DNA of 64,000 nucleotides from Naegleria gruberi (lineage: Eukaryota), in NCBI GenBank assembly GCA_000004985.1, contig GG738874.1. One strand, 5' to 3'. A program made the translations under genes and the position numbers. Below are positions 3,001 to 31,235 of this stretch, piece by piece (position 1 is the first letter of the stretch; each line of letters starts with the position of its first letter). Below the pieces are notes generated by a model. The model was not told where the DNA came from and did not search any database. It saw only the letters and a program-made list of their open reading frames with translations.

Positions 3001-5110
3001 AATTGGAAATATAGATGCTTCAACCAAGATTGCCACCACTTCTCAAAGAGTTTCATTGCATATTGAGGAAATTTATATTTTTGGTATTTTGCAAACAAAT
3101 ATGTATCCCATCAACAATGAGGAATTACTCACCCCTGAACAAATTTTTGAATATCACGAAGGAATGGATCAGTTAACAATTGACTTGGATGAACTTTGGA
3201 ATCGCCTTCTGTATGGTGATATTAATACTGGAGATGCTGTTCTTGTTGGATTATATCCTGAAATAGACAAGATTATTGAGGGTTACAACTGCACCAATAA
3301 TACATCAGCCAATTGTGGAGAAAGTTTGAACGACTTGCTAAACAACCTCATACTCAAAGCAACCAAGATTAATGAAATTTATGTTGCCCTTGATAAGAAT
3401 GAGAGAATAATATTTGATGAATTTTTTTCTACAATTTACATGATTAGCAATAGAGTGACAGATTCAATGCTTAATTTCATTGATATCTATGTCTCCAGTG
3501 TTCAACGTAACGATTCCTATGTTATAGTAATTCTGTTTGGAATAGGTGGCCTTTTCATAATGCCAGTTTTGTTGATCTATATTTTGAACGTTCTTTCTGG
3601 TCAATTGAATGAAATTTACTCATTACGTCTCATTTTGAACTATGTGAACATTGATATACTTGAATCAAAGGAACAACTGAGAAACTTTATTCTTCACAAC
3701 AATCTGTCACGAGAAAAGAAAAAGAAAAATCAAGTTTCTAATAATGTAGAAGAGGACAAGGTCAGAAATATTCTAAATGCCTCTGTCGAAGGTTGTTTAT
3801 TATGTAATCATAATTATGAAATTGAAATATACAATCCAGCAGCTCAAAGGTTTGTTTTTTCTACTTTACTATTTATCTAAAACAAAATTTTAAAGAATGT
3901 TTATGAAACAAGTTAATGAAGTTATTGGATTGCCAATGTGGACTCTATTTGAAAAGAATTGCCAGGATAGAATCAAACTCATCCTTCAAAATCTAACAAA
4001 AACTACTGGTAGTATTGCAAATGGTGAAACAGCAGAACTCGATGGACTAAGAAAAAATGGAACTCTCTTCCCAGCACGTGTTAATATATTTTGGACAATG
4101 TTCGATTCTAAACCAGTATTCACTTGTTTCATTAAGGATGTAACAACAGAGAAAAAGCAAAATGCACTGTTGGCCGAAGAGAAGAAGAGATCTGAAAATC
4201 TTCTCAGAAATATTTTACCAGAATCTGTAGCAAACAAATTGAAGAATGGAGATACATTCATTGCAGAAAAACTACCAGATATTACATGTTTCTTCTCAGA
4301 TATGGTTGGGTTTACTACCATATCTAGTCATTTGAATGCTAATGAGATTGTTAAAATGTTGAGCTCCATAGTCAGTGGATTTGATAAGTTAACAGATAAG
4401 TATGAATTGGAAAAGATTAAAACAATTGGAGACAGTTATTTCTGCGTTGGAGGATTACATCAAGCGAGTGACCACCCTGAGAGAGTAGTTAGATTTGCTA
4501 TTGAAACCTTTGGAGTGGTTAGGGATTATAACAATTCACTATTTAAGGATACAGATCCCCAATCTGTTTCTCAAATAGATATTAGAATTGGTATTAATAC
4601 TGGTTCAGTTGTTGCTGGAGTTATTGGTATTAAGAAGTTTGCATATGTAAGTTAGAAATTTAGTTATTCTATTAATTGATTCCTGTTAATTTAACAAAAT
4701 AGGATTTATGGGGTGATACTATTAATGTTGCTTCGAGAATGGAAAGTAATTCTAAACCTGGCCGAATCCAAGTTTCCAGATCAACCTATGAAAGAGTTCA
4801 CGATCTAGGATTTGAATTTGAGGAAAGATCAATTGAAGTGAAAGGAAAAGGAGTAATGAGGGCCTATCTTATCCACGAAAAACACCACACAAGTGCCACA
4901 TTGACCAACAAGGATATTGAAATAGTTACGGGAGATACACAGTACTTTGCAAGTCCTTTATCTGGTAGTGAATCACCCCTTCCACCAGCCTCTAGCTCCA
5001 ACCCACCCTCAATTAAATCATCACCCAATAATAGTGAATCTAAGAGAGAAGCTATTGATCCAATGGCTTATGATCGTTTAGCAACATTTACTATTGGACA
5101 AAAGGACTAG
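5..5110 (+). CDS. Receptor-type adenylate/guanylate cyclase, copy 1. Multi-TM N-terminal region, extracellular region, TM, PAS domain, class III cyclase catalytic domain. Exons 5..3849, 3896..4646, 4703..5110. Probably 5'-partial at the window edge.
   Basis: A 1291-aa ORF is joined in frame to ORFs 3897..4655 and 4739..5110 by two GT-AG introns: 3850..3895 (gtttgt...aaag) and 4647..4702 (gtaagt...atag). The junctions reproduce the continuous paralog sequence at 42934..47802 (NPAAQR|MF... and KFAY|DLWGDTIN). Cyclase motifs: FFSDMVGFT, KIKTIGDSYF, GDTINVASRMES. PAS motif: NASVEGCLLCNHNYEIEIYNPAAQR. Stop TAG at 5108-5110. Confidence 0.8.
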
Positions 5111-5114
5111 AGCT

Positions 5115-6770
5115 TTATTTCAGTAAACCAGCATATTCATTTCTCTTCTCTAGTCTCAATTTGTAGTACAATCCTGCAATTGTAACACCAACACCACATA
5201 ACAAACCTATTGCCAGAATAACAACAATTGCAATAATTACACCAGTTGAATTATCACTGGCATAGTACTTGTCATAAACTGCTTGTACTTCGCTATTGAC
5301 TTGGTTTCTATATTTTCCAATCTTATTTACATTCTTGTCAGGATAAACTCTATTGGTCAAAAAGATTGTGAATAAATTTCTTTCTGGATCTCCACAAACT
5401 TGAGTACCAGAAAATCCTAAATGCAAGAATGTTTTCTTTGAGAGACTTCCACATGATCCATTTCCTTCAGCATTGGTATCCCTGTAATAATTAATTATTC
5501 GAATTAGTTCAGTTTTTTAACTTACCATCCTAAAGCTCTAGAGCTTTGTTGAGTGTTCTTGACAGATGTAAAAAGTGAGAAAGTTGTTGAATCAATGAAA
5601 TTTTCCCTTCTTCTGAACATTAATTCGTCCATAAAATTGTAAACATCTGGCAATGTTGAAAAAATTCCAGCCTTAAAGTGTTAATTATTTAACATGATTA
5701 TTGTCAACTTACATGTCCTGAAATACCGCCCTGTGCATAACAATTTTCATCAGAAACATATCCCTGAATCAAATCATGATGATAAACCTCGTCAAGCCAA
5801 GCAGGTGGAATATTTACATCATATCTATTTGGAATGTATCCACTATTTGACATTCCAAGTTGTTCCAAAACATGTTTCCTCACAAATGCTTCAAAATAGC
5901 AAGTTTCATGACCAGGAGCATTCAATCCAATTTGTGATACGCAATCACTTCTCAAATCATCATTTGAAATTTGCAACAGATTCATATTCTTTTTAACAAT
6001 TTGTCCAATAATATACATGAGTGAAATCATAGACAAATCACTATAGACATATTTTTCACCTATAATTATTTCTCAGTCACCCAACAAATAATATTTAACA
6101 TACCTATATTGTGAGCCAACTTTTCATTCAACCAAGAATTAAAAATCTTATTCGAACAAGTAAACACTTGTGGTGGATGATAAATCTCCGTAGCACTACA
6201 ATTAAACTCAACAGTATTATAGGTAGGATTTGGATCTGGAGCCAACCCTGAATTGTGCAATAATAAATTCTCAATAGTAATTCCACTCTTTCCATTCACT
6301 CCAAATTCAGGAAAATACTTTACAACACTATCATGCAATGAAATCAAATCCTTCTGATACAACAAGGCAACTGCTGATGTGGTCGAAATTACCTTGGTCA
6401 CCGATGCCATATCAAATTTGGTCGTATTTGTATTCATCACTCGTTGTTCATCATCATTGTAAGTAAACTTTCCAAAGGCTTTAGAATAAATTGGACCATC
6501 CTTATTGGCCACTAAAAGAACAGCACCCGGAAAAGCCTTCTCAGCAATGCCACTATTTATAATATTCTCCAGATTGTCCCAACGATGATCATTTGTTTGA
6601 CCATTCACTTCATTGAAAGTAATAAAAAGTATCAACATCATAATCATCATGAATATTTTCCTTGTCATCATCATGTTGTCGATGGAACGACAAGTGCTGC
6701 AAGAGGATCCGATTCGATTTTTGATGCTTCCTTTTAATGATGAAGAATGCAAGGATGGCAATTTGGGCAT
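5115..6770 (-). CDS. Beta-lactamase-related serine hydrolase (PBP/class C beta-lactamase fold, esterase/LACTB-like) with an N-terminal signal peptide and a C-terminal TM segment. Exons 6770(or 6674)..6104, 6059..5713, 5671..5526, 5481..5115.
   Basis: SxxK motif FDMASVTKV. Y-x-N-like motif GEKYVYSD, recovered across the 44-bp intron 6060..6103 (gtatgt...tatag). YAQGGISGH is followed by intron 5672..5712 (gtaagt...ttaag). A 146-nt middle exon is followed by intron 5482..5525 (gtaagt...ttacag). The final exon carries HLGFSGTQVCGDPE. Exon lengths keep the frame (667/347/146/367 nt). There are two candidate ATGs: 6770 (MPKLP...) and 6674 (MMMTRKIF..., signal-peptide-like). Confidence 0.72.
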
Positions 6771-6867
6771 TTTTTTAATGTTAAATATTATTTAAATAAT
6801 TATAATTGAAATAAATAAATTGTGTTTACAATGAGAGAATAATTAAATTTTTAGAGGAGAGAGAAAA

Positions 6868-8611
6868 TTAGAGATTGGATTGAAGTTGGAGGATAACAGT
6901 CTTGAGGGAAGTCCATGCCTTCATTCCCTCTTCTCCTGCTTCTCTACCAAAACCAGATTGTTTAACACCACCAAATTCGGCAACATGCAAAACATTGTGA
7001 TAATTATTGATCCAACAAACTCCACATTTGATTCTGTCAGAGAAGGTGAACATATTGTCAACATTCTTAGTGAGAATGGCAGCTGCCAAACCAAATTCAG
7101 TATTATTACATCTGGTGATAACTTCATCGAGAGTCTTCCATGGCTTCAGAATAGATTGAACTGGACCAAAGATTTCTTCTCTAGCAATACGCATATTATC
7201 ATCAACCTTATTTAAATTGAACAGAGAAAAACAAGTTAAATTATTGTGTGTTAGAATTGAGATAATTGTCAAAATAAACTTACATCATAGAAAATTGTTG
7301 GCTTGACGAAATAACCCTTAGTAGGTAAACCTTCAGAATCACCACCAATTAATAATTTAGCACCTTCCTTTTTACCAATTTCAATATAGCTCTTAACTCT
7401 GTCATATTGTTCCTTGTCAACCAATGGTCCAATATTAGTTTCATCATTCAAATTGTATCCAATCTTGAAAGTGGCGACATGTTCCTTGAGCTTTCTAACA
7501 AATTCATCATAGATATCAGCATGAACAAATGTTCTACTTCCAGCAGTACAAGCTTCACCATTATTATTGAAAATACTGAAAGCAGCAACCTTAACAGCTT
7601 CATCAACATTGACATCAGGACAAACAACAACAGGTGATTTACCACCGAGTTCCAAATGGACTTGTTTCAAATTAGATTCGGCAGCTCCCTTCATGACAAG
7701 ACGACCAACTTCAGTAGATCCTGTGAATGCAATCTTACTGACCTTCTTGTGACTGACGAGTGGAGCACCAGCATTTGGACCATCACCCATAACAACATTG
7801 TAAACACCCTTTGGAATACCAACCTTTTGACAAATGTCAGCAAGTTTGAGTGCAGTCAATGGAGTTTGTTCAGATGGCTTCAAAATGACACAGTTACCCA
7901 TAGCCATAGCAGGAGCAACATTAACCAATGAACACCACATTGGGAAGTTCCATGGAGAAATAACTAGACAAACGACTCAATTATTAAATTCTAATAATGC
8001 TACCTACCACCAACAACACCAACTGGGCTTCTTTGAGTATAAACGTGGAATTTCTTATCAGTAACACAAATTCTTCCACTCAATTTATCAATCCATCCAG
8101 CACTATATCTCCAAGTATCGGTAATACTCTACATTTCCACAAAATAATAATTAATTTTAAATTGTCATATATCCACAAAAACATTCCACAAAATAATTAA
8201 TTGAAATTAATTATATCAATACTACTCCGCATCACATCATCAACCTACTTTAATAACATAACGGTTAACTCCGATAGGTGTACCATTATTAAGTCCTTCC
8301 AACAAGGCCATTTCCTCAACTTGTCTATCCCATTCATCAGCAAGTTTATAAATAAGTTCTTGTCTCTTTTGTGGTTCCATATTTCCCCATTCTCCATTCA
8401 ATGCTTCTTCAGCAGCTTGAACAGCCAATTCAACATCTTGTGCACAACCATCACTAACACTACACAAAACTTGTTCCGTAGCTGGACAAATCAAGTCCAA
8501 CTTTTTTCCGCTCTTACTCTCCACAAATTCACCATTGATGAATTGTTTGAGTTGGGAAGGTTTGATGGCTTCAAATTGCTTCAAAACTTGTACGTGGGAA
8601 ATGTTGCTCAT
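6868..8611 (-). CDS. Aldehyde dehydrogenase (ALDH1/2-like, NAD-dependent). Exons 8611..8249, 8128..8008, 7963..7284, 7206..6868.
   Basis: N-terminus KQFINGEFVESKSGKK...INPATEQV. Motifs ITDTWRYSAGWIDK, ISPWNFPMW, FTGSTEVG, ELGGKSP, GEACTAGSR, EEIFGPV, GLAAAILT, EFGGVKQSGFGRE. Introns 8129..8248 (gtaggt...tgtag), 7964..8007 (gtaggt...ctag) and 7207..7283 (gtaagt...aaataag). All junctions restore the ALDH consensus and the exon lengths keep the frame. Confidence 0.85.
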
Positions 8612-9973: not shown

Positions 9974-12900
9974 TTACTTGAATACTTTTACAATTTGAGT
10001 TATTGGTTTTCTACAGGTAGGACATGATTTGTTAGTGAGCTTGTTGGCACAGCCATCACACATTATCATGTGACCACATGGAACCAAAACTACATTAATC
10101 TCCTTATCCATACAAACGATGCAGTGATTATTTTCTTCTTGCTGCTCGTGGTGATGATCAGTAGGTGTGGTGATTTGAGAAATATTGGCTGGTTCTGGAA
10201 TTCTTTCTTCCTCTGCAAGCCAATCTCTATTAGTAAAGATGGATGGGTCCTCTGTTTGGATTCTTGAATTGGATGGAGTTATTCCACTATTAGAAGAAGA
10301 GGATTGATTGTTGTTGTTTGATTGACCTGTGTGTTTTTTTCTAGTTTGTACAATTTCTCTCTTTCTCTCACCGGCAAGGAATGCAGTTCTGTTTGACTTT
10401 TTCATTCTGTAGAGAAGTGAAGAGAGTTTGTCTGTTTCTCTCATTGATGAATCATTTTCACATTGTCTCAAATCTTCATCTAGGTCTTGAGTATTGTTTA
10501 CAAATGCATTCATTTCTTCTTGCTGACCGTATGACTTGGAGACTTCTTCCAAGAGTTTGTTCATACTCAAAAGTTTCAATCTGGCATCTCTAATTTTGCC
10601 ACTTTCAGCAAGAATGGAGCTTTGTAAAACTGCATTTAAGGACAATACAGAAACATCTACATTTTCTAAGGAAACACTTCTGTCAGATGTAATCTTAACT
10701 GGTTGATTAACCACTCTCACATATTTGCATCCGTTTGATGAGGCAGTATAGTAAATTTGTGCTTGAATCAATCCCTTATCCTTCTTATCATCTTTTACTT
10801 CCATTTCAATGGTAACATCTGTCTCAGCTGTTGCACTGCTAATTGATTGAGTAACCATTGAATACTTATCCAATTTAGATACCTCCTGATTCTTTGGTGA
10901 TATTGGATTGGAGAAGAGCATTTGTACTTTAACATCGGTTGCAATAACTGGATTATCAATAATTTGTCTCATTTGCCTTCTTAATTCAACTGGTTTTACA
11001 ATGTTTGTCAAACCTCCAGTATTATCAGCGAGCTTTCCAATTAATGACAAGTTACAGTTTGAGCCCTCAACACCAAAAACATTAATATTAATGCCATACT
11101 CGCAGGATAAGTTTGCAATCTTTGTGCAACACTCTTCTTGATCCTTGATACTTTTAGCTCTCTTTGAAATTTCCTCACTAATACCAGCCAAACCTGTTGT
11201 TGCAACTCCGTCAGTGCACAGGATAATTTTGCTACCTTTTTGCTGACTTGCAATACCCAAACTAACAAGTAAGGCAGGGAACAGTGCTGTAGCACCATCT
11301 TCTGCAATTGAGTAAATATACTCAATCAAATTATCATTGGCAAGTGAAACATTGTTTAGAATAGAGGTTCTATAAGATTGTCCTAACTTGAACAATCCTT
11401 CGAAATTATCAAGTAACACAGCTGGGACACTAGCTCTAGTTTGTGATCTGGCGTCACCAATAATTTGCACATTGCTTGAGAAGGTAACAATGGCTATTCT
11501 CTTATTGGGAGATTCTCTAGCTGTTTCAGTAACTTGAATATCTAGAGCCATCTTGAGACAGTCCATTCTAGAAACATAGGATGAAGATCGACTTTCGTTT
11601 GGAAGAAATTGATTATGAACAGAAACTTCAGATTCTAATCCCAATTCTCTCAGTAAACGTCTATTCTTTTCTTGTTGGTCGGATTGTCTCAAATCCAAAT
11701 TAAGAACAGAGTAGCTTGGTAATTGCTCAGATTGACACATACTGCCAGAGATATCAATACAAAAAACTAGTAAGCCGTCATCATCATTTACAGAACTCTC
11801 TTCCAACTTGTGTTCAATCATTTCTGGAATGGATGAAACATTGGAAGGTAATACATTTTCAGTATCGCAAAATGAGCATTTCCAATGATTTCTCTTTTTT
11901 TCACCATTTAACGCAGCTTTACAATTTGAACAGGTAACAAGAGGGCCTAGAGCTTTTGGACATTCTGCTAAAAGGCCATTCATACACAAGGCAGCAACAT
12001 TGGCATCAGATTTTGGATGTTTGATAGTTTGTTCGTTTGAAAGATCAATAGAGGATGAACAAGCTTGTGAAACTGTTGAGGCAGTCTTTTTTTCACTCTT
12101 CTTGAAAAGTCTCGATAAGAAACCTCCTCCACTAGACTTTTTTTTGCTTGTGGAAGATGATACTGAGCTACTTTGGGCATCATCGAGAGGAACATTTGAA
12201 ACAACTATTTGTTTTCTATAAGAATCCTCCTAATAACATTTGTTTGAAACATGATATTCAAAGAAATTCACTTACACTATAATAATAACATTCAGTAATA
12301 TTCAAAGAAGCAACTTACATTGTTGGGTCGTATTGTTCTACGAACACATTTTGAATGAATTGTGTGCAATAAGCACTTTTTCCTACACCACCAGAGCCAA
12401 CAATAGAAAATCTGTATTCATCCAATCTTCCACACATTCTTACTAGTTCATGAATAGGTTCGTCTACATTAATCCTTTGTTTGGCACTTGTTTCAAAATA
12501 AGGAATGCCCAAACGAAGTGCAACTTCCTTAACTTGTTGTTTTGACACTATTCTCTCCTCTTCCAAATCACTCTTGTTTGCAATAAGTACACAAGGAAAT
12601 GAATCAACATCCTTTGTCCTCAAAATTTGTTCCCAAATAGTTTGACAATCTTCCAACGAACTTGAATCTGTTATCGAAAAAACAATAAGAAAACCATATG
12701 ATGTTCTATAGTATTGATCTCTCAAACTACTATATTCTATTGTTGAGTGAGTGCAAAGAGGTTAGCACACTTGTTAATAATGAGAGACAACAAAAACCAA
12801 CCTTCTTGTCCAGCAGTATCGAGTAAATCAATTAAAGCTACATGATCGGAGCCTCCAGTAGTATTACTTTCACCACCAACAGAAGAATATCCAAGCTGTT

Positions 12901-13045
12901 TTCTTCTAGAATGTGTGTATGCCTTCTTTAATGAGTGAGACTCTTCCAATAATCGGAGAGGAAAGAAATCATATTCTTCATCCTCTTGTTGGTCAGTCTT
13001 CTTCTTGTTGTGATACAATGTTTTGGTAGCCAATTGTAGAGACAT
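9974..13045 (-). CDS. cpRAS-VWA-RING protein. A circularly permuted Ras-like GTPase domain (order G3-G4-G5-G1-G2) is followed by a Ser-rich linker, a zinc finger, a von Willebrand A domain and a C-terminal C3HC4 RING. Exons 13045..12802, 12736..12319, (12276?), 12229..9974.
   Basis: Reading 5' to 3' on the minus strand the motifs appear in this order: LIDLLDTAGQE (G3), RDQYYRTSYGFLIVFSITD, LIANKSD (G4), ETSAK (G5), then in frame DEYRFSIVGSGGVGKS (G1/P-loop) and YDPT(I/M)EDSYRKQIVV (G2/switch I). Intron 12737..12801 joins QE|EYSSLRDQY. VWA MIDAS motif: LLVFCIDISGSMC. RING: CIVCMDKEINVVLVPCGHMIMCDGCANKLTNKSCPTCRKP. The junction from the G2 exon to the downstream exon is non-trivial (see findings). 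Confidence 0.6.
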
Positions 13046-13353: not shown

Positions 13354-14335
13354 ATGCTAACACGAAGCAAGAGAAACAATCTGCAAAACAAGAGGAGACT
13401 CTACTCTGAAGCCATTAAATATTACTCTTCATCCGAAGAATCAGAAGAGGACGATGAAACAGAAAGTGAACAAGAAGATAACCAACCAAATAATGGTGAA
13501 AATGCTCAAGGAGATGATGAATATAATTATTCTTCACCCGAAGAAGAATTCGCATCAGATATTTCCAATGATGATGAAACACCAAATATCAAACACAACA
13601 AAAAGAAGAGAAAACGCAATTCATCACCGGAAGAGGAATCCAGGAATACTTTTGAATCACCAATTATTATTGATGATCAATCCTCTCCTATTGATTTATT
13701 AACACCTCCCACCACAACAACAAATTCAAAATCAAATTCTTCACATCATTTAGGTGATGAAACAATAATTCTCTCCGATTCATCTGAAGTTTCAGTCATT
13801 ATTGATATATCAGATTTTTCTAACAACAATAGTTCGTGCTCATTGAATCAATGTGCAGATGATCATCAACATGGTAATTCACCATCACCACCACTGAATT
13901 ATCCTCCTTCACCACCACATTTTCAAGAGATGATGGCGCAACCAACTTTAAACGAAAAGTTTGCATCATCACCATCAGCAACATGTTTGGAAAATAAAGC
14001 AGCTGAAGGTAGTGAAGATCATGAACCCCCATTGTTGGAGCCAATTGAAGAGTTTCAAGTGAATACTGAACCAGAAAGTCAATTAGAAGATGATAACATT
14101 TCTTTGGACTTTAATATCCTCAAATTGGCAGGTCAAAAGTCTTGTCACTAGCGAACTAAAACAAATTTTAGATCTGGATCCATTGGATAATGGTGAAGAA
14201 TCGAATAATGAAGAAAATGTTGGGAAGTTACTGGCTCATTTTGGGGAAACAGATAGAGAATTTCTTGCACAATATGCTAAACTAGATGACTCTAAGAAAC
14301 AGAAACTCTTAGAATATATTGCAACCCTGCAATAG
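13354..14335 (+). CDS. Hypothetical acidic Ser/Asp/Glu-rich protein. Exons 13354..14131, 14172..14335.
   Basis: A 265-aa low-complexity acidic ORF. A 40-bp intron at 14132..14171 (gtcaaaag...ttttag) joins it in frame to the downstream 54-codon ORF (...ILKLA|DLDPLDNGEE...). Stop TAG at 14333-14335. Confidence 0.45.
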
Positions 14336-18482: not shown

Positions 18483-20540
18483 CTATTCCATGGCACTTGC
18501 TAACTTTTTCAAATCTGTCCAATCTTGCTCGGATAAACACTCACATCCAGGATAATTCTTCCATTTTTCAATATTGTCAAAAACTTTAGAATTTCTTTCA
18601 ATAGCTCTCCTCAGTAGATCCTTATTGAGAAACACTTGATAACCTGGATGACACAAATTATCTACAAAATTATCTGGTGAACTATCCCACAAATGCTCAC
18701 TGAATGCTTGACATGCTGTAATTTCCTTGATTGGAACACCCATTTCCATTGCCAGATCAATCACTTGTCTATTTTCTCTAAATGTCTGTCCAAAATACTT
18801 GTAGCAAACTTTGTTTTTCCTAATGCATTTCATGACAAAGTCTATTGGAAGATACTTATAGTATGATTGTGGATGGTAACGACTGTCCATTAACCAATCA
18901 CAGAAATCCCTATTATTTAGTAACAGGTCGTGATGTATGTAAGCGAGTGGTGTCAGTCCATGCCATTTGACTGCTTGTTTCATAAGGTCAATATCAAATG
19001 GGAATGCTTTACAAACAGCATAACAAATTGAATTACTTTCTTTCCTATAGTGATATGAAGGTGTTGTCAATATATGGGTCATTATTTCTCTATCTGAGTA
19101 ACAAGCAGAAGGAAGTTTTTCAAAATGAATATTAACCCCAATTTTAAAAAGCAGTAGCTTAACAAGAGATGCCTCTTTCCTTAGCTCATCTGATAGCTTA
19201 TAATAAAAAGAATAATTCTTACATATAAATAGTGAAGCAAATTGTAGATCGGTAATAAGTGGTGCTGCTCTGCAAAGTTCTTGGAAGTTAAAAGAGGCGA
19301 TATTGAACTCTATTTCATTCTTTAGAAACTTGTAAAATCTTATAATGGAAAATGGGTAGACTGAAATAATTTGTTTCATCAAGAGTTCTGATGATAGATT
19401 ATTCTCATCATCAACTGGAATACCGTTAGTGACAAGATATTCTTTCAATATTTCTTGGTCATTTAACAAAGCCTCTCCAATGCTAAGAATGGAAATCATT
19501 CTCTTTCTATTACTGTGTAATTGAAAATATCTCAGTACAAAATTCTTATCATTTCTCAATTCTTCTTTACATGTAATGAGACCATTTGAATGGTTTTTTA
19601 AAATGTACTTTTCTTCCTCTGTTTCCATTGAAAGATTTTCCAAATGAGGATATTTCGATTTTGTTAATTGGAGCAAATGATCTTTACAAGCACGATATTT
19701 TTCACAACATCCAATGGAAATAAATTTCAGAGCTACATTTGGATTTTCAATTGAATTAAAAAGATTGGTATGATTTCTCAAAAGGATACTTTCTTGAATT
19801 TGGAACGGAGACTTTTCAATAATTATTTTGAAATTGTTGCAAATTGAGTCAATTCTAAATTCAAGACCTCTCTCTTCCAATAAATGATAAAATTTGAGAA
19901 CCATTAGTGGTCTATTCTTCAAAATCTCTTCAATCAATTCAAAAGTATTCAATGAATCAAATCTTTCATGTCTCCACTCTTTTTCAGACATCATTCCTCT
20001 TCTCAATACTTGTGAATCGGATAATAAAGACTCTCCCACATAGTGCAGTGTGTTAAATCTTCTTCCCAACACTTTCATTACAAATTCCTTATCATTTCTC
20101 AAGTCTGAGCTGGCAAATTGTAAAGCCAATGGATTGTGTTTACATGCATCAAGAACAATCTCTCTATCATTTCTAAAATTAGTAGCTAATTGTAATGCTA
20201 AAATGTCCTTCTTGACTAATTCTGAAACTACATGTCTTATTTGGAATAATTTCTCTGGTAGTGCATTTAATGAATAATATTTAAAGTTAAACAATTGTTT
20301 GGTCAACTCGGGAGATTTTGCAAGAGCAGAAACCAAATTCACCCAATCCATTTTCGGATGAGAGCCAATAACAAACAACAAGCTCGGTTGATTTTCATAA
20401 TCTCTAAATAAATTATTAATATGATAATACATAGATTTGTAATTATTTTCAGTAAGAATTCTAACAATTTTGTCAAGTTTCTCCATTCTTTCCCAAATAG
20501 ATTCTGCTTTGTCTTTCCTTTTGACCTTTCTTTGATTCAT
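18483..20540 (-). CDS. DUF4116-repeat protein with repeated DxEIVLxAVxxNxxALQFASxxLRNDKEFV units
   Basis: A 705-aa ORF. The track start at 20600 is a TTG; the first ATG is at 20540 (MNQRKVKRK...). It contains repeats such as NDREIVLDACKHNPLALQFASSDLRNDKEFVMKVL and LRNDKNFVLRYFQ, which are typical of the DUF4116 family. Confidence 0.55.
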   Translation of the reverse strand: MNQRKVKRKDKAESIWERMEKLDKIVRILTENNYKSMYYHINNLFRDYENQPSLLFVIGSHPKMDWVNLVSALAKSPELTKQLFNFKYYSLNALPEKLFQIRHVVSELVKKDILALQLATNFRNDREIVLDACKHNPLALQFASSDLRNDKEFVMKVLGRRFNTLHYVGESLLSDSQVLRRGMMSEKEWRHERFDSLNTFELIEEILKNRPLMVLKFYHLLEERGLEFRIDSICNNFKIIIEKSPFQIQESILLRNHTNLFNSIENPNVALKFISIGCCEKYRACKDHLLQLTKSKYPHLENLSMETEEEKYILKNHSNGLITCKEELRNDKNFVLRYFQLHSNRKRMISILSIGEALLNDQEILKEYLVTNGIPVDDENNLSSELLMKQIISVYPFSIIRFYKFLKNEIEFNIASFNFQELCRAAPLITDLQFASLFICKNYSFYYKLSDELRKEASLVKLLLFKIGVNIHFEKLPSACYSDREIMTHILTTPSYHYRKESNSICYAVCKAFPFDIDLMKQAVKWHGLTPLAYIHHDLLLNNRDFCDWLMDSRYHPQSYYKYLPIDFVMKCIRKNKVCYKYFGQTFRENRQVIDLAMEMGVPIKEITACQAFSEHLWDSSPDNFVDNLCHPGYQVFLNKDLLRRAIERNSKVFDNIEKWKNYPGCECLSEQDWTDLKKLASAME

Positions 20541-20929
20541 CTTTTTATAACTCTTCAAGAATGGATATTTAAACTTGTGTAATTTGCTTGATACTATCAA
20601 AGGGAAGAAAATGTCCTCGGAAGATCAACTCTACTGATTTGTAACATTCTACAAAGGATTCGTTTAATTTCAAACGATTCTTACTCTCTTCACGAATAAT
20701 TTTCACAAATTGTTGATAATTACAATTATTGGAATAAAATTCAGCTCTTAAAGTTGCATCTCTGTTGTTGGCAACATCTAAAAGCAGCGTAACTTGTGAT
20801 GACATTTTTTATTCTAGTGGTGCAAACAGGAATTTGTGTTGGAGCAGTTTGACTGGCTTGTGCTCTCTCATAAGATGATTCCATTGAACTATAATCTTTT
20901 TACCACAACATACAGTTTAGTAAAAATTT

Positions 20930-29144: not shown

Positions 29145-31235
29145 TTAAACCTTGTTGAGCAATCCGTGAGTACTTAAATATGGGGTGGATGCAGTCAAAC
29201 TTGTCTTTTTGAGCTCTTCTAATTGTTGAGCTAAATAGTTTTTCTTGGCTAATTTCTTTGCTTGTTTTGAGATTAAAAGCCAATACGAACCTTGCAGAAT
29301 TGCAATGATTGCAAGACTAAGAGTAAAACCTATCCATACTCCCAATAATCCCCAATCTAATACGAAAGCCAAAACACAACCGAAAGGAAAGCCAATAACA
29401 AAGTATCCAATCACACCAATTACAGCACAAACAAATGGCTTGTTTAAACCTCTCAGAATACCACCAAAAATAGCTTGAAAACCATCAACAATAAGGAATA
29501 TCAAACAAATAGGTAAAATTCTAATCGATTCATAAATTAGAGTTGAATCACTGGTATAAATTTTTGGTAAAACAACAATAGTACATGCCACTACAATTAC
29601 TGTTATTACCATAATGAAAGAGGAGAGTATGATATTTGCATGTGAACTGTATCTTACTGATTTGTAATCACCTCTTCCAAAACGATGAGCAATACAAACA
29701 GTACTAGCCATAGATAAACTCATAGGAATCAAATAGGCAAAATTAGAGATGGATAGAACAATACCGTGAACAGACAATTGAGTATTACCTAAAAATCCAG
29801 CAATAAAAGTTGAAAGCTCACTTCCCCAAATTTCAGAACTCATCATTATGGAACCAGGAAAAGAAATTTTCAAATGATCAAATATTCCCTTTAACGACTT
29901 TTCTTTTTTGAATGGAGTTACGTTGATAGTGGTTGGGAGTTTTTCATCTTGAGGCAATTCACCTGTTTTGGATGTGGTAGCATAGATAATCTCTTTAAGT
30001 GAGAAGTTTTTGAACATTTGTCTCATTTCCTTCTTACAAATGATTACAAATACCATCAAGATGAAAAAACCAATGAACATGAGCCATCTAGTGGACGAGG
30101 TAGCAATGGCACTTCCATAAAAACCAATACCCTTAAAATCACCGACTCCACCCACAAGGAAGAAGCTCATCAAGACATTATACACAACGCATACAATACA
30201 AACTGCAATACTAGGCCAATAAATCTTTTGAGCGACCATAAACGAATACAAACTTCTGGAATAAATGAAAGGGAACAAACCTGGAATAAGATATCTCATA
30301 AATGTTATGGTGAGTTGAGTAACAACTTGTCTACTAATTAGACCTTCTGGTGTTGTTTCAACCAACTCGAATAGCATTGCAATATAACCAGAGAAGAACA
30401 TTATAATGGAGACAGGTATCATGAATAGAGTTTGAAGAAGGAGACTTCTAATCCATTCAGCAATAATTAAATTACCATCCTTGTTACCAAAAGCTTTAGA
30501 GATCAACGGCTCTTGACCATTACCAATCAATCCAAGAACTATAATACTTAATCCATTGAATAGTGAAGTAGCTAAGGTCAAAGAAGCTAGGTATTCAGAT
30601 GTTGTGGGATAAAGTGAGGTAGAGTTGATATTCAGCGCATAATCAAATCCGTAGAGTTCTGTAAGTGCACCTGGTTGACTAAAATCTACTTGTGTAACAG
30701 TATTGTTCAGAGTGGCAAGTCCTGAACGATTTGAGTTAATGTGTCCAACAACAATCATATCCTCAAGACCGAGAATAAGAATGCACAAATTGAACACTAA
30801 AAAAGGAATACAAGTAAATATGAGTGGCAACAATTCCCTTCTCACATTGTGGAAATAATCCATTCTGTTCTTGTTTCTGAGGCGTGAATTGTTACTGAGT
30901 TGAAGATCATCACTTCCAATGCTTGATTTTCTGCTCTCACTAGAAATGTCAGAAGAGCTTTGCTTGGTAGTTGATGATGAACAGTGATCATCAACACTGA
31001 TATTGCACTCATCAATATCAGCATAGTGAATGGTCAATGATTTGTTCGAACCAGGATCAATGTAATCATACCATGTAATATCAAATACCATGGATAGATC
31101 TTCAGCATTGAGAGCAATTTGTTGATCTTGTTGGGAAGTGCTGGTAGTGGCAGTAGAAGTGGTGATCTTGATTTGTTTATCATCATCACTAACTTCCTCA
31201 ACACTTAATAATGTGAATGACTTGTTTTGATTCAT
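29145..31235 (-). CDS. MATE (multidrug and toxic compound extrusion) family transporter with a long Ser-rich N-terminal extension
   Basis: A 696-aa ORF with a true ATG at 31235. About 12 predicted TM helices arranged as two 6-TM repeats. Glycine-rich loop motifs typical of MatE (e.g. ...LGLIGNGQEPLISKAFGNKDG..., ...MASTVCIAHRFGRGDY...). Confidence 0.78.
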   Translation of the reverse strand: MNQNKSFTLLSVEEVSDDDKQIKITTSTATTSTSQQDQQIALNAEDLSMVFDITWYDYIDPGSNKSLTIHYADIDECNISVDDHCSSSTTKQSSSDISSESRKSSIGSDDLQLSNNSRLRNKNRMDYFHNVRRELLPLIFTCIPFLVFNLCILILGLEDMIVVGHINSNRSGLATLNNTVTQVDFSQPGALTELYGFDYALNINSTSLYPTTSEYLASLTLATSLFNGLSIIVLGLIGNGQEPLISKAFGNKDGNLIIAEWIRSLLLQTLFMIPVSIIMFFSGYIAMLFELVETTPEGLISRQVVTQLTITFMRYLIPGLFPFIYSRSLYSFMVAQKIYWPSIAVCIVCVVYNVLMSFFLVGGVGDFKGIGFYGSAIATSSTRWLMFIGFFILMVFVIICKKEMRQMFKNFSLKEIIYATTSKTGELPQDEKLPTTINVTPFKKEKSLKGIFDHLKISFPGSIMMSSEIWGSELSTFIAGFLGNTQLSVHGIVLSISNFAYLIPMSLSMASTVCIAHRFGRGDYKSVRYSSHANIILSSFIMVITVIVVACTIVVLPKIYTSDSTLIYESIRILPICLIFLIVDGFQAIFGGILRGLNKPFVCAVIGVIGYFVIGFPFGCVLAFVLDWGLLGVWIGFTLSLAIIAILQGSYWLLISKQAKKLAKKNYLAQQLEELKKTSLTASTPYLSTHGLLNKV

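Follow-up and report, generated by a model that had tools for sequence, protein, structure and literature searches.

Within a 64,000-nucleotide stretch (the window) of contig GG738874.1 from Naegleria gruberi (assembly GCA_000004985.1), the minus strand between positions 13045 and 9974 carries a gene for a circularly permuted Ras domain fused to a zinc finger, a von Willebrand factor A (VWA) domain and a RING. With a probability of about 0.9, this is the single-copy CPRas gene of N. gruberi published in 2008 as NgrCPRas. The discovery value is low, as the protein, its permutation, the zinc finger, the VWA domain and the RING were all described for this gene in 2008; the combined reading is already known and not new. 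To this published knowledge we make three incremental additions: a clade of CPRas proteins that carry the RING, a predicted Sec23/24-like fold for the whole C-terminal body, and a probable exon of one nucleotide.

The locus and its gene model

The gene model was built by joining the open reading frames (ORFs) of the minus-strand DNA at canonical GT..AG sites. It runs from an ATG at 13045 to a stop codon whose last base is 9974 and yields a product of 972 residues, with no in-frame stop left after splicing. In the DNA, no in-frame ATG was found upstream of 13045, and this start aligns with the N-termini of the Willaertia and N. lovaniensis proteins. Antisense ORFs within the locus are each at most 94 residues long. 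The independently derived product matches the corrected published NgrCPRas at 972 of 972 positions, which, together with alignments to human HRAS in swapped order (see below), bears out the assignment to the cpRAS family made in an initial annotation of this DNA.

The cpRAS domain, with the motif order G3-G4-G5-G1-G2, and the cpRAS-zinc finger-VWA architecture were defined by Elias and Novotny (2008, Biol Direct 3:21; PMC2430557). The RING of NgrCPRas was already noted there, having been pointed out by the reviewer L. Iyer. Our locus is the same gene without sequence difference, and its 4-Cys zinc finger, VWA/Sec23-24 trunk and C-terminal RING are all noted in that paper, which is silent on how the Ile of the TIE motif is encoded and on the beta-sandwich and helical domains, and in which the RING was known only in Naegleria. 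The architecture described for the family, cpRAS, linker, 4-Cys zinc finger and VWA/Sec23-24 trunk in about 840-970 residues, is found here in 972.

The features of the gene are as follows; AF2 denotes AlphaFold2, pLDDT the predicted local distance difference test and pTM the predicted template modelling score.

9974..13045, minus strand: CPRas gene, ATG to stop; from the splice model and its identity to the corrected published NgrCPRas
12802..13045, minus strand: exon 1, with the weakly conserved N-terminus, beta3 and G3 (DTAGQE, 12820..12803); splice model
12737..12801, minus strand: intron 1, 65 nt, GTTGGT..TAG, phase 1, between DTAGQE and EYSS; its removal restores DTAGQEEYSSLRDQY, as in HRAS
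12319..12736, minus strand: exon 2, with G4, G5, the alpha5-beta1 junction, G1, YDPT and the first two bases of the Ile codon; contains most of the uninterrupted ORF 12315..12725
12277..12318, minus strand: mini-intron A, 42 nt, GTAAGT..TAG; carries a 3-nt indel in a metagenome contig and resembles mini-intron B
12276..12276, minus strand: putative one-nucleotide exon (T), the third base of ATT for Ile221 in the TIE motif of G2; from canonical GT-AG splicing that keeps the motif
12230..12275, minus strand: mini-intron B, 46 nt, GTAAGT..TAG; from the splice model and comparison with the metagenome contig; resembles mini-intron A
9974..12229, minus strand: last exon, with EDSYRKQ (the rest of G2, and beta2), a low-complexity, Ser-rich linker, the zinc finger, the Sec23/24-like core, a disordered spacer, the RING and the stop; from the ORF and an AF2 model (pLDDT 82.7, pTM 0.79)

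A Ras domain permuted at the beta2-beta3 hairpin

The GTPase motifs occur in the permuted order G3-G4-G5-G1-G2, as initially annotated and within about 20 nt of the positions estimated there. On the minus strand, G3 (DTAGQE) lies at 12820..12803, G4 (NKSD) at 12578..12567, G5 (ETSAK) at 12494..12480, G1 (GSGGVGKS) at 12398..12375 and G2 (YDPT-I-EDSYRKQ) at 12332..12209. Contrary to what had been stated, they do not share one reading frame. Exon 1 encodes G3, exon 2 encodes G4-G5-G1, and the last exon encodes EDSYRKQ and all that follows; these three coding blocks are in different frames joined by GT..AG introns. The description of helix alpha5 running straight into strand beta1 holds: alpha5 (VDEPIHELVRMCGRL) occupies 12467..12423 and beta1 (DEYRFSIVGSGG) follows at 12422..12387. 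The passage from alpha5 into beta1 and the P-loop (DEYRFSIVGSGGVGKS) lies entirely within the uninterrupted ORF 12315..12725, and the permutation is therefore not an artefact of exon order or assembly.

A broader form of this concern, that separate Ras and VWA-RING genes were fused artificially or that a misassembly placed the G1 exon after G5, is effectively refuted. It would fit the flagging of the automatic Joint Genome Institute (JGI) model as an incorrect prediction, and also the prokaryote-style gene call on the metagenome contig described below, which finds only the 669-residue ORF of the last exon. Against it, G4, G5, alpha5, beta1 and G1 stand in one ORF, no in-frame stop remains after splicing, and the same order is found in the Willaertia and N. 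lovaniensis genomes. The same architecture, Ras, VWA and RING, is present on single complete transcripts in four other protists: Physarum polycephalum, Heterolobosea sp. BB2, Pharyngomonas kirbyi and the jakobid Stygiella incarcerata. An independent metagenome assembly is also colinear: contig L001 (run ERR1078381, project PRJEB11402), presumably from another N. gruberi-like strain, is nearly identical over exon 2, both mini-introns and the last exon. L001 and L002 differ from the N. gruberi locus by a few substitutions and a 3-nt intron indel. The observations that the initial annotation named as fatal to its proposal, two separate genes or a misplaced G1 exon, are thus not made, as the junction lies in a single ORF, the metagenome assembly has the same arrangement and relatives carry Ras, VWA and RING on single transcripts.

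In a hidden Markov model search with the spliced protein, as had been suggested, Pfam Ras matches with E=1.6e-45 in two stretches, the better of which aligns residues 66-182 with profile positions 44-159; the search also returned the RING profile zf-C3HC4_3 (E=2.7e-16) and a weak match to VWA_2. By BLASTP against human HRAS, residues 71-181 correspond to HRAS 52-161 (53% identity, 2e-34) and residues 186-232 to HRAS 1-46 (48% identity, 5e-14), in swapped order; scores of this size far exceed chance expectation. Our homolog set consists of the best 120 homologs listed, and conservation was read from an alignment of 102 sequences. The P-loop GSGGVGKS, T220, Q80 (Q61 of HRAS), NKSD and SAK are all present, in columns at least 90% conserved. 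The TIE motif of the Ras family is complete if the putative exon at 12276 is used, as only then is its Ile encoded. Judged by its sequence, the G domain is of the Ras family, permuted at the beta2-beta3 hairpin, with the nucleotide-binding and catalytic motifs all intact, G2 provided that this exon is used.

The full-length fold was taken from an AF2 model of the Willaertia ortholog, 46-50% identical (pLDDT 86.7, pTM 0.83). Its elements run beta3-alpha2-beta4-alpha3-beta5-alpha4-beta6-alpha5-beta1-alpha1-beta2, the order predicted for the permutation. The chain break lies between strands 2 and 3, and helix 5 is followed by strand 1, helix 1 and strand 2, both in the ORF and in the model. The best structural match of this G domain, Rap1b, superposes at 0.7 Å over about 100 residues (Foldseek). 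The initial annotation saw in the junction the look of a duplication-derived permutation and proposed to see by structure prediction whether the permuted G domain folds with alpha1/beta2 duplicated at both ends. The permuted fold is seen in the Willaertia model; a vestigial second beta1-alpha1-beta2 was sought at the N-terminus and not found. BLASTP detects no second HRAS-like segment at E<10, and the N-terminal elements of the Willaertia model run E-E-E-H-H, not beta1-alpha1-beta2.

Permuted P-loop GTPase domains also occur naturally in the YRG/YlqF/YjeQ proteins, which are universal, ancient and not of the Ras family. Their break point differs, giving the order G4-G5-G1-G2-G3. A weak Pfam match of CPRas to RsgA_GTPase (E=4e-4, below the cut-off) is explained by shared motif order.

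A candidate one-nucleotide exon in the G2 motif

The initial annotation wrote the G2 region as YDPT.EDSYRKQ, and the dot corresponds to a real gap in the genomic coding sequence. With slashes at the proposed splice sites, the DNA reads ...CCA ACA AT/GTAAGT...(42 nt)...TATAG/T/GTAAGT...(46 nt)...TTATTAG/GAG GAT TCT TAT AGA.... Only the lone T at 12276 restores ATT (Ile) and the family-wide YDPTIEDSYRKQ. Residues I221, E222, D223, S224, Y225 and R226 are each at least 90% conserved. Two other solutions were rejected: removal of all 89 nt as one intron (12318..12230) changes the frame and leads to a stop, and retention of either mini-intron leaves in-frame stops. As read from the genomic DNA, the mature mRNA most likely requires the removal of two adjacent mini-introns around a putative one-nucleotide exon.

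The introns inferred by a scan for ORF continuity across the whole window typically measure 38-65 nt, from a GTAAGT donor to a TAG acceptor. Both mini-introns are thus of normal size, and an intron of 89 or 103 nt would be unusual. Mini-introns A and B also resemble each other: both contain TTCTTTGAATAT and AATGTTATTA, and their alignment score was equalled or exceeded in just 4 of 2000 shuffles. This likeness suggests that the one-nucleotide exon may have arisen by tandem duplication of a short intron. In the strain represented by L001, 3 nt are inserted in mini-intron A, and mini-intron B differs by a substitution; the core TAG/T/GTAAGT is unchanged, and the exon differences checked in this contig are synonymous. 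In N. lovaniensis and Willaertia the G2 motif is uninterrupted, and an intron lies about 10-15 codons upstream instead.

The G2 region could also be spliced as one intron of 103 nt (12318..12216), giving YDPT-I-KQIVV. This would remove EDSYR, that is, the effector loop and the start of beta2, leaving a crippled or non-switching G domain in which the EDSYR codons are an intronic relic. From the donor at 12318, no further canonical GT..AG splice to a nearby acceptor stays in frame, and one-nucleotide exons are extremely rare. The two models predict different junctions: CCAACAATTGAGGATTC, i.e. ...CCAACAAT/T/GAGGAT... or CGACCCAACAAT-T-GAGGATTCTTATAG, with the one-nucleotide exon, and CCAACAATAAAACAAATAG, i.e. 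CGACCCAACAAT-AAAACAAATAG, with the 103-nt intron. Scans of metagenome and metatranscriptome contigs gave no match to a pattern fitting either splice outcome and no transcript that would decide between them; the spliced junction of intron 1, used as a control pattern, had no match in these contigs either. Several observations speak against the longer intron. The five residues that it would delete, E222, D223, S224, Y225 and R226, are conserved as stated above, and their codons stand intact directly after an AG acceptor. Its length falls outside the pattern of the window, into which 42 and 46 nt fit. TAG/T/GTAAGT is perfect in the second strain though both mini-introns have changed, and the corrected published model likewise has the Ile and EDSYR (PMC2430557), the coding of which is not commented on there. 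We regard the 103-nt intron as improbable; it could also represent an alternative isoform or mislead gene predictors. We conclude that the TIE Ile is probably completed by a genuine, constitutively spliced one-nucleotide exon, T 12276, born of a tandem duplication of a short intron.

A paper of 2026 gives the number of reported single-nucleotide nuclear exons as two, in APC11 of Arabidopsis (PMC4674806) and CYP621A of Fusarium (PMC12940212). As in these genes, the lone base in CPRas lies between AG and GT, keeps a highly conserved motif in frame and sits in an intervening sequence about twice the usual intron length. The APC11 and CYP621A exons have transcript proof, whereas the Naegleria exon is a candidate read from genomic sequence. 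CPRas differs further in that the flanking introns resemble each other and in that the organism belongs to a third eukaryotic supergroup. If true, the known nuclear single-nucleotide exons would number three, with that of CPRas the only one from outside plants and fungi and the only one whose origin can be seen; it would also explain the failure of automatic gene models at CPRas. We consider it the one fresh point of this locus and a modest, separate lead. In a scan of the whole window for micro-exons of 1-6 nt, only the CPRas locus and a doubtful 2-nt case near 30254 were found. The latter (30366..30203, minus strand) would connect two long ORFs through an exon 'AA', with putative introns of 111 and 51 nt on its two sides, and it may be spurious.

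A Sec23/24-like core

Downstream of the G domain, the Cys-rich zinc finger, the VWA domain with an intact metal ion-dependent adhesion site (MIDAS) and the C-terminal C3HC4 RING of the initial annotation are all present. Between the Ser-rich linker and the spacer that precedes the RING, four domains are distinguished:

11867..11932, minus strand: 4-Cys zinc finger with CxxC pairs (C321, C324, C339, C342); the Cys and W337 are at least 90% conserved, with a weak Pfam match to zf-Sec23_Sec24
10955..11773, minus strand: VWA/Sec23-24 trunk, residues 374-646; from MIDAS conservation, weak Pfam matches to Sec23_trunk and VWA_2, and Foldseek matches to Sec23/24
10694..10948, minus strand: beta-sandwich, residues 649-733; from a weak Pfam match to Sec23_BS and AF2 strands, within the Sec23/24 structural alignment
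10325..10681, minus strand: alpha-helical domain, residues 738-856; from AF2 helices at 517-635 of the exon product, within the 610-640 columns of the Sec23/24 alignment

The weak Pfam matches occur in the correct order: zf-Sec23_Sec24 at residues 319-350, Sec23_trunk at 445-632 and Sec23_BS at 653-734. The MIDAS sequence DISGS (D380-x-S382-x-S384) is encoded at 11755..11741 on the minus strand. D380, S382 and S384 are at least 90% conserved and T535 and D561 are invariant, a pattern that points to a complete MIDAS metal site in the trunk.

A sequence search of the PDB with the large ORF matched the RING alone, so that the relationship to Sec23/24 needed a comparison of folds. Besides the Willaertia model, we used an AF2 model of the 751-residue product of the N. 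gruberi last exon. With both, the top Foldseek matches are Sec23 and Sec24 chains, over 610-640 columns (E=3.9e-23 for the Willaertia model, E=1.5e-21 for the last-exon model). These are followed by Sec23/24-like proteins of the Toxoplasma pre-conoid ring, a bacterial VWA protein and the archaeal ArnA/B 'Sec23/24 core'. On the predicted fold, the region previously called 'zinc finger and VWA' is a whole core of the Sec23/24 type, composed of zinc finger, trunk, beta-sandwich and helical domain.

The domain order is that of Sec23 and Sec24 in the COPII coat, and in both systems the core is partnered by a small GTPase, Sar1 in COPII and the G domain in cis in CPRas. In CPRas the GTPase is of the Ras family and covalently fused, the MIDAS residues are conserved, and sequence identity to Sec23/Sec24 is 11-15%. 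The gelsolin domain of Sec23, which supplies an arginine finger to Sar1 in the Sec23-Sar1 structure, has no counterpart: no Pfam Gelsolin match was obtained, and after the helical domain both models show only a disordered spacer and the RING. CPRas accordingly has no arginine finger of the Sec23 type and, the gelsolin domain being absent, should not be filed as a Sec23/24 paralogue.

The RING and its distribution

The last domain is the RING:

9995..10132, minus strand: C-terminal C3HC4 RING of the IAP/MDM2 type, residues 921-966, followed by the tail IVKVFK; zf-C3HC4_3 with 59.5 bits against a cut-off of 27

The RING motif, at 10123..10013 on the minus strand, is matched by a regular expression at the C-terminus, and the Pfam zf-C3HC4_3 match covers residues 921-966 at the E-value given above. 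Its best PDB sequence matches are cIAP2 (7.9e-12), cIAP1, XIAP, MEX3C, CGRRF1, MYLIP, MGRN1, MDM2 and MUL1, entries that are C-terminal RINGs of active E3 ubiquitin ligases. In the CPRas RING, CIVC contains a hydrophobic residue, the last Cys is directly followed by Arg (CPTCR), and the short tail has a penultimate Phe (VKVFK); the RING-bearing homologs carry similar tails. In the IAP and MDM2 RINGs, such features serve contact with the ubiquitin-conjugating enzyme (E2) and dimerisation. With the IAP/MDM2/MUL1/MGRN1-type RINGs (zf-C3HC4_3), the CPRas RING shares the C3HC4 spacing, the extreme C-terminal position, the CPxCR ending and the penultimate aromatic of the tail; it differs in sitting on a wholly different substrate-binding body. 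A related combination exists in plant RGLG1/2, substrate-binding E3 ligases with a MIDAS-containing VWA domain of the copine type and a C-terminal RING of the same Pfam type. RGLG1/2 have no GTPase domain, zinc finger, or beta-sandwich and helical domains of the Sec23/24 type; they were absent from the results of our searches, none of which was aimed at them.

The distribution of the RING was assessed from precomputed PF13920 annotations of the 120 listed homologs and from a RING regular expression applied to the 102-sequence alignment. PF13920 is annotated in 13 of the best 120 homologs listed, and in the alignment the regular expression picks out these same sequences, in each case at the very C-terminus. 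In a neighbour-joining tree from 759 well-occupied columns, built without support values and with the RING columns too gappy to be counted among them, all RING-bearing sequences cluster with N. lovaniensis, apart from the metazoan, dictyostelid, Acanthamoeba/Balamuthia, Capsaspora and basidiomycete sequences. The RING therefore marks one subclade and is not general to the CPRas family. The named members of this clade are Heterolobosea, a jakobid and Physarum. The RING form is thus not a Naegleria oddity: its clade spans Discoba and Physarum, and in age or in spread it goes beyond the one case known in 2008.

The Willaertia magna protein (969 residues, 46-50% identical) has the RING. For N. lovaniensis, the annotated model (C9374_008334, 799 residues) is truncated: it lacks the zinc finger and ends short of the RING, which tblastn locates at 6754-7059 of PYSW02000034.1, at the end of a locus spanning 4001-7059. 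The other cpRAS-VWA proteins, named 'circularly permutated Ras protein 1' by NCBI, include Dictyostelium CPRas1 and proteins of Acanthamoeba, Capsaspora, Monosiga, sponges, echinoderms and molluscs. They are 26-37% identical to the N. gruberi protein over about 80% of its length and have the permuted G domain, zinc finger, MIDAS VWA domain, beta-sandwich and helical region in common with it. Past the helical region they have only a short conserved tail and no RING.

A possible GTP-switched ubiquitin ligase

The domain content suggests a mechanism, which we put forward tentatively, at somewhat below even odds. The G domain would cycle between GTP and GDP states, and the nucleotide state would gate either ligand capture by the MIDAS and the Sec23/24-like core or the availability of the RING. 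The RING could then recruit an E2 and ubiquitinate the bound partner, so that CPRas would be a self-contained, GTP-switched RING E3 ligase.

Several points weigh against CPRas as an intact switch coupled to a ligase. The coupling of the G domain to the rest of the protein is unsupported. A search of the accessible literature for functional work on CPRas returned the 2008 paper and passing mentions in annotations, with no member studied biochemically or genetically, and the 2008 authors called the function of CPRas 'completely open' (PMC2430557). Among the listed homologs most family members have no RING, so that the function common to the family cannot be that of an E3 ligase. An intact G2 motif requires the putative one-nucleotide exon, to which the 103-nt intron is the in-frame alternative. 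Finally, the full-length structure is that of the Willaertia ortholog, not of the N. gruberi protein itself.

The same structural data could be read as a coat- or adaptor-like machine, in which the cpRAS domain docks in its GTP state on its own Sec23/24-like core as Sar1 does on Sec23, possibly at a membrane, the RING being a lineage-specific accessory. The match of the core to Sec23/Sec24 over about 610-640 columns includes an entry of the Sec23-Sar1 complex (1m2o_A), and the full-length ortholog is modelled with a pTM of 0.83, which suggests that its domains have a defined arrangement. The absence of the RING from most CPRas proteins also implies that the conserved function must reside in the cpRAS domain and the core. 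Such a machine nevertheless seems unlikely to us: the gelsolin domain with its arginine finger is missing, the helical domain being followed by the disordered spacer and the RING; the G domain resembles Ras and Rap, not Arf and Sar; and the conserved MIDAS points to ligand binding of the integrin/VWA kind. Whether as a switched ligase or otherwise, CPRas is a worthwhile experimental target, with a Ras switch, a Sec23/24-like ligand-binding core and an E3-type RING joined in one chain.

Neighbouring genes

Nothing suggests a functional linkage of CPRas with its neighbours. Fragments of aldehyde dehydrogenase and beta-lactamase-family genes lie downstream. The neighbours noted at 6069..7940 and 18486..20600, both on the minus strand, comprise an aldehyde dehydrogenase (Pfam E=6e-85, apparently split by short introns), a beta-lactamase-family protein and a DUF4116-repeat protein. 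An aldehyde dehydrogenase also adjoins CPRas on the metagenome contig. On the other side, a divergent ORF rich in Ser, Asn and Glu and without a Pfam match starts at 13354.

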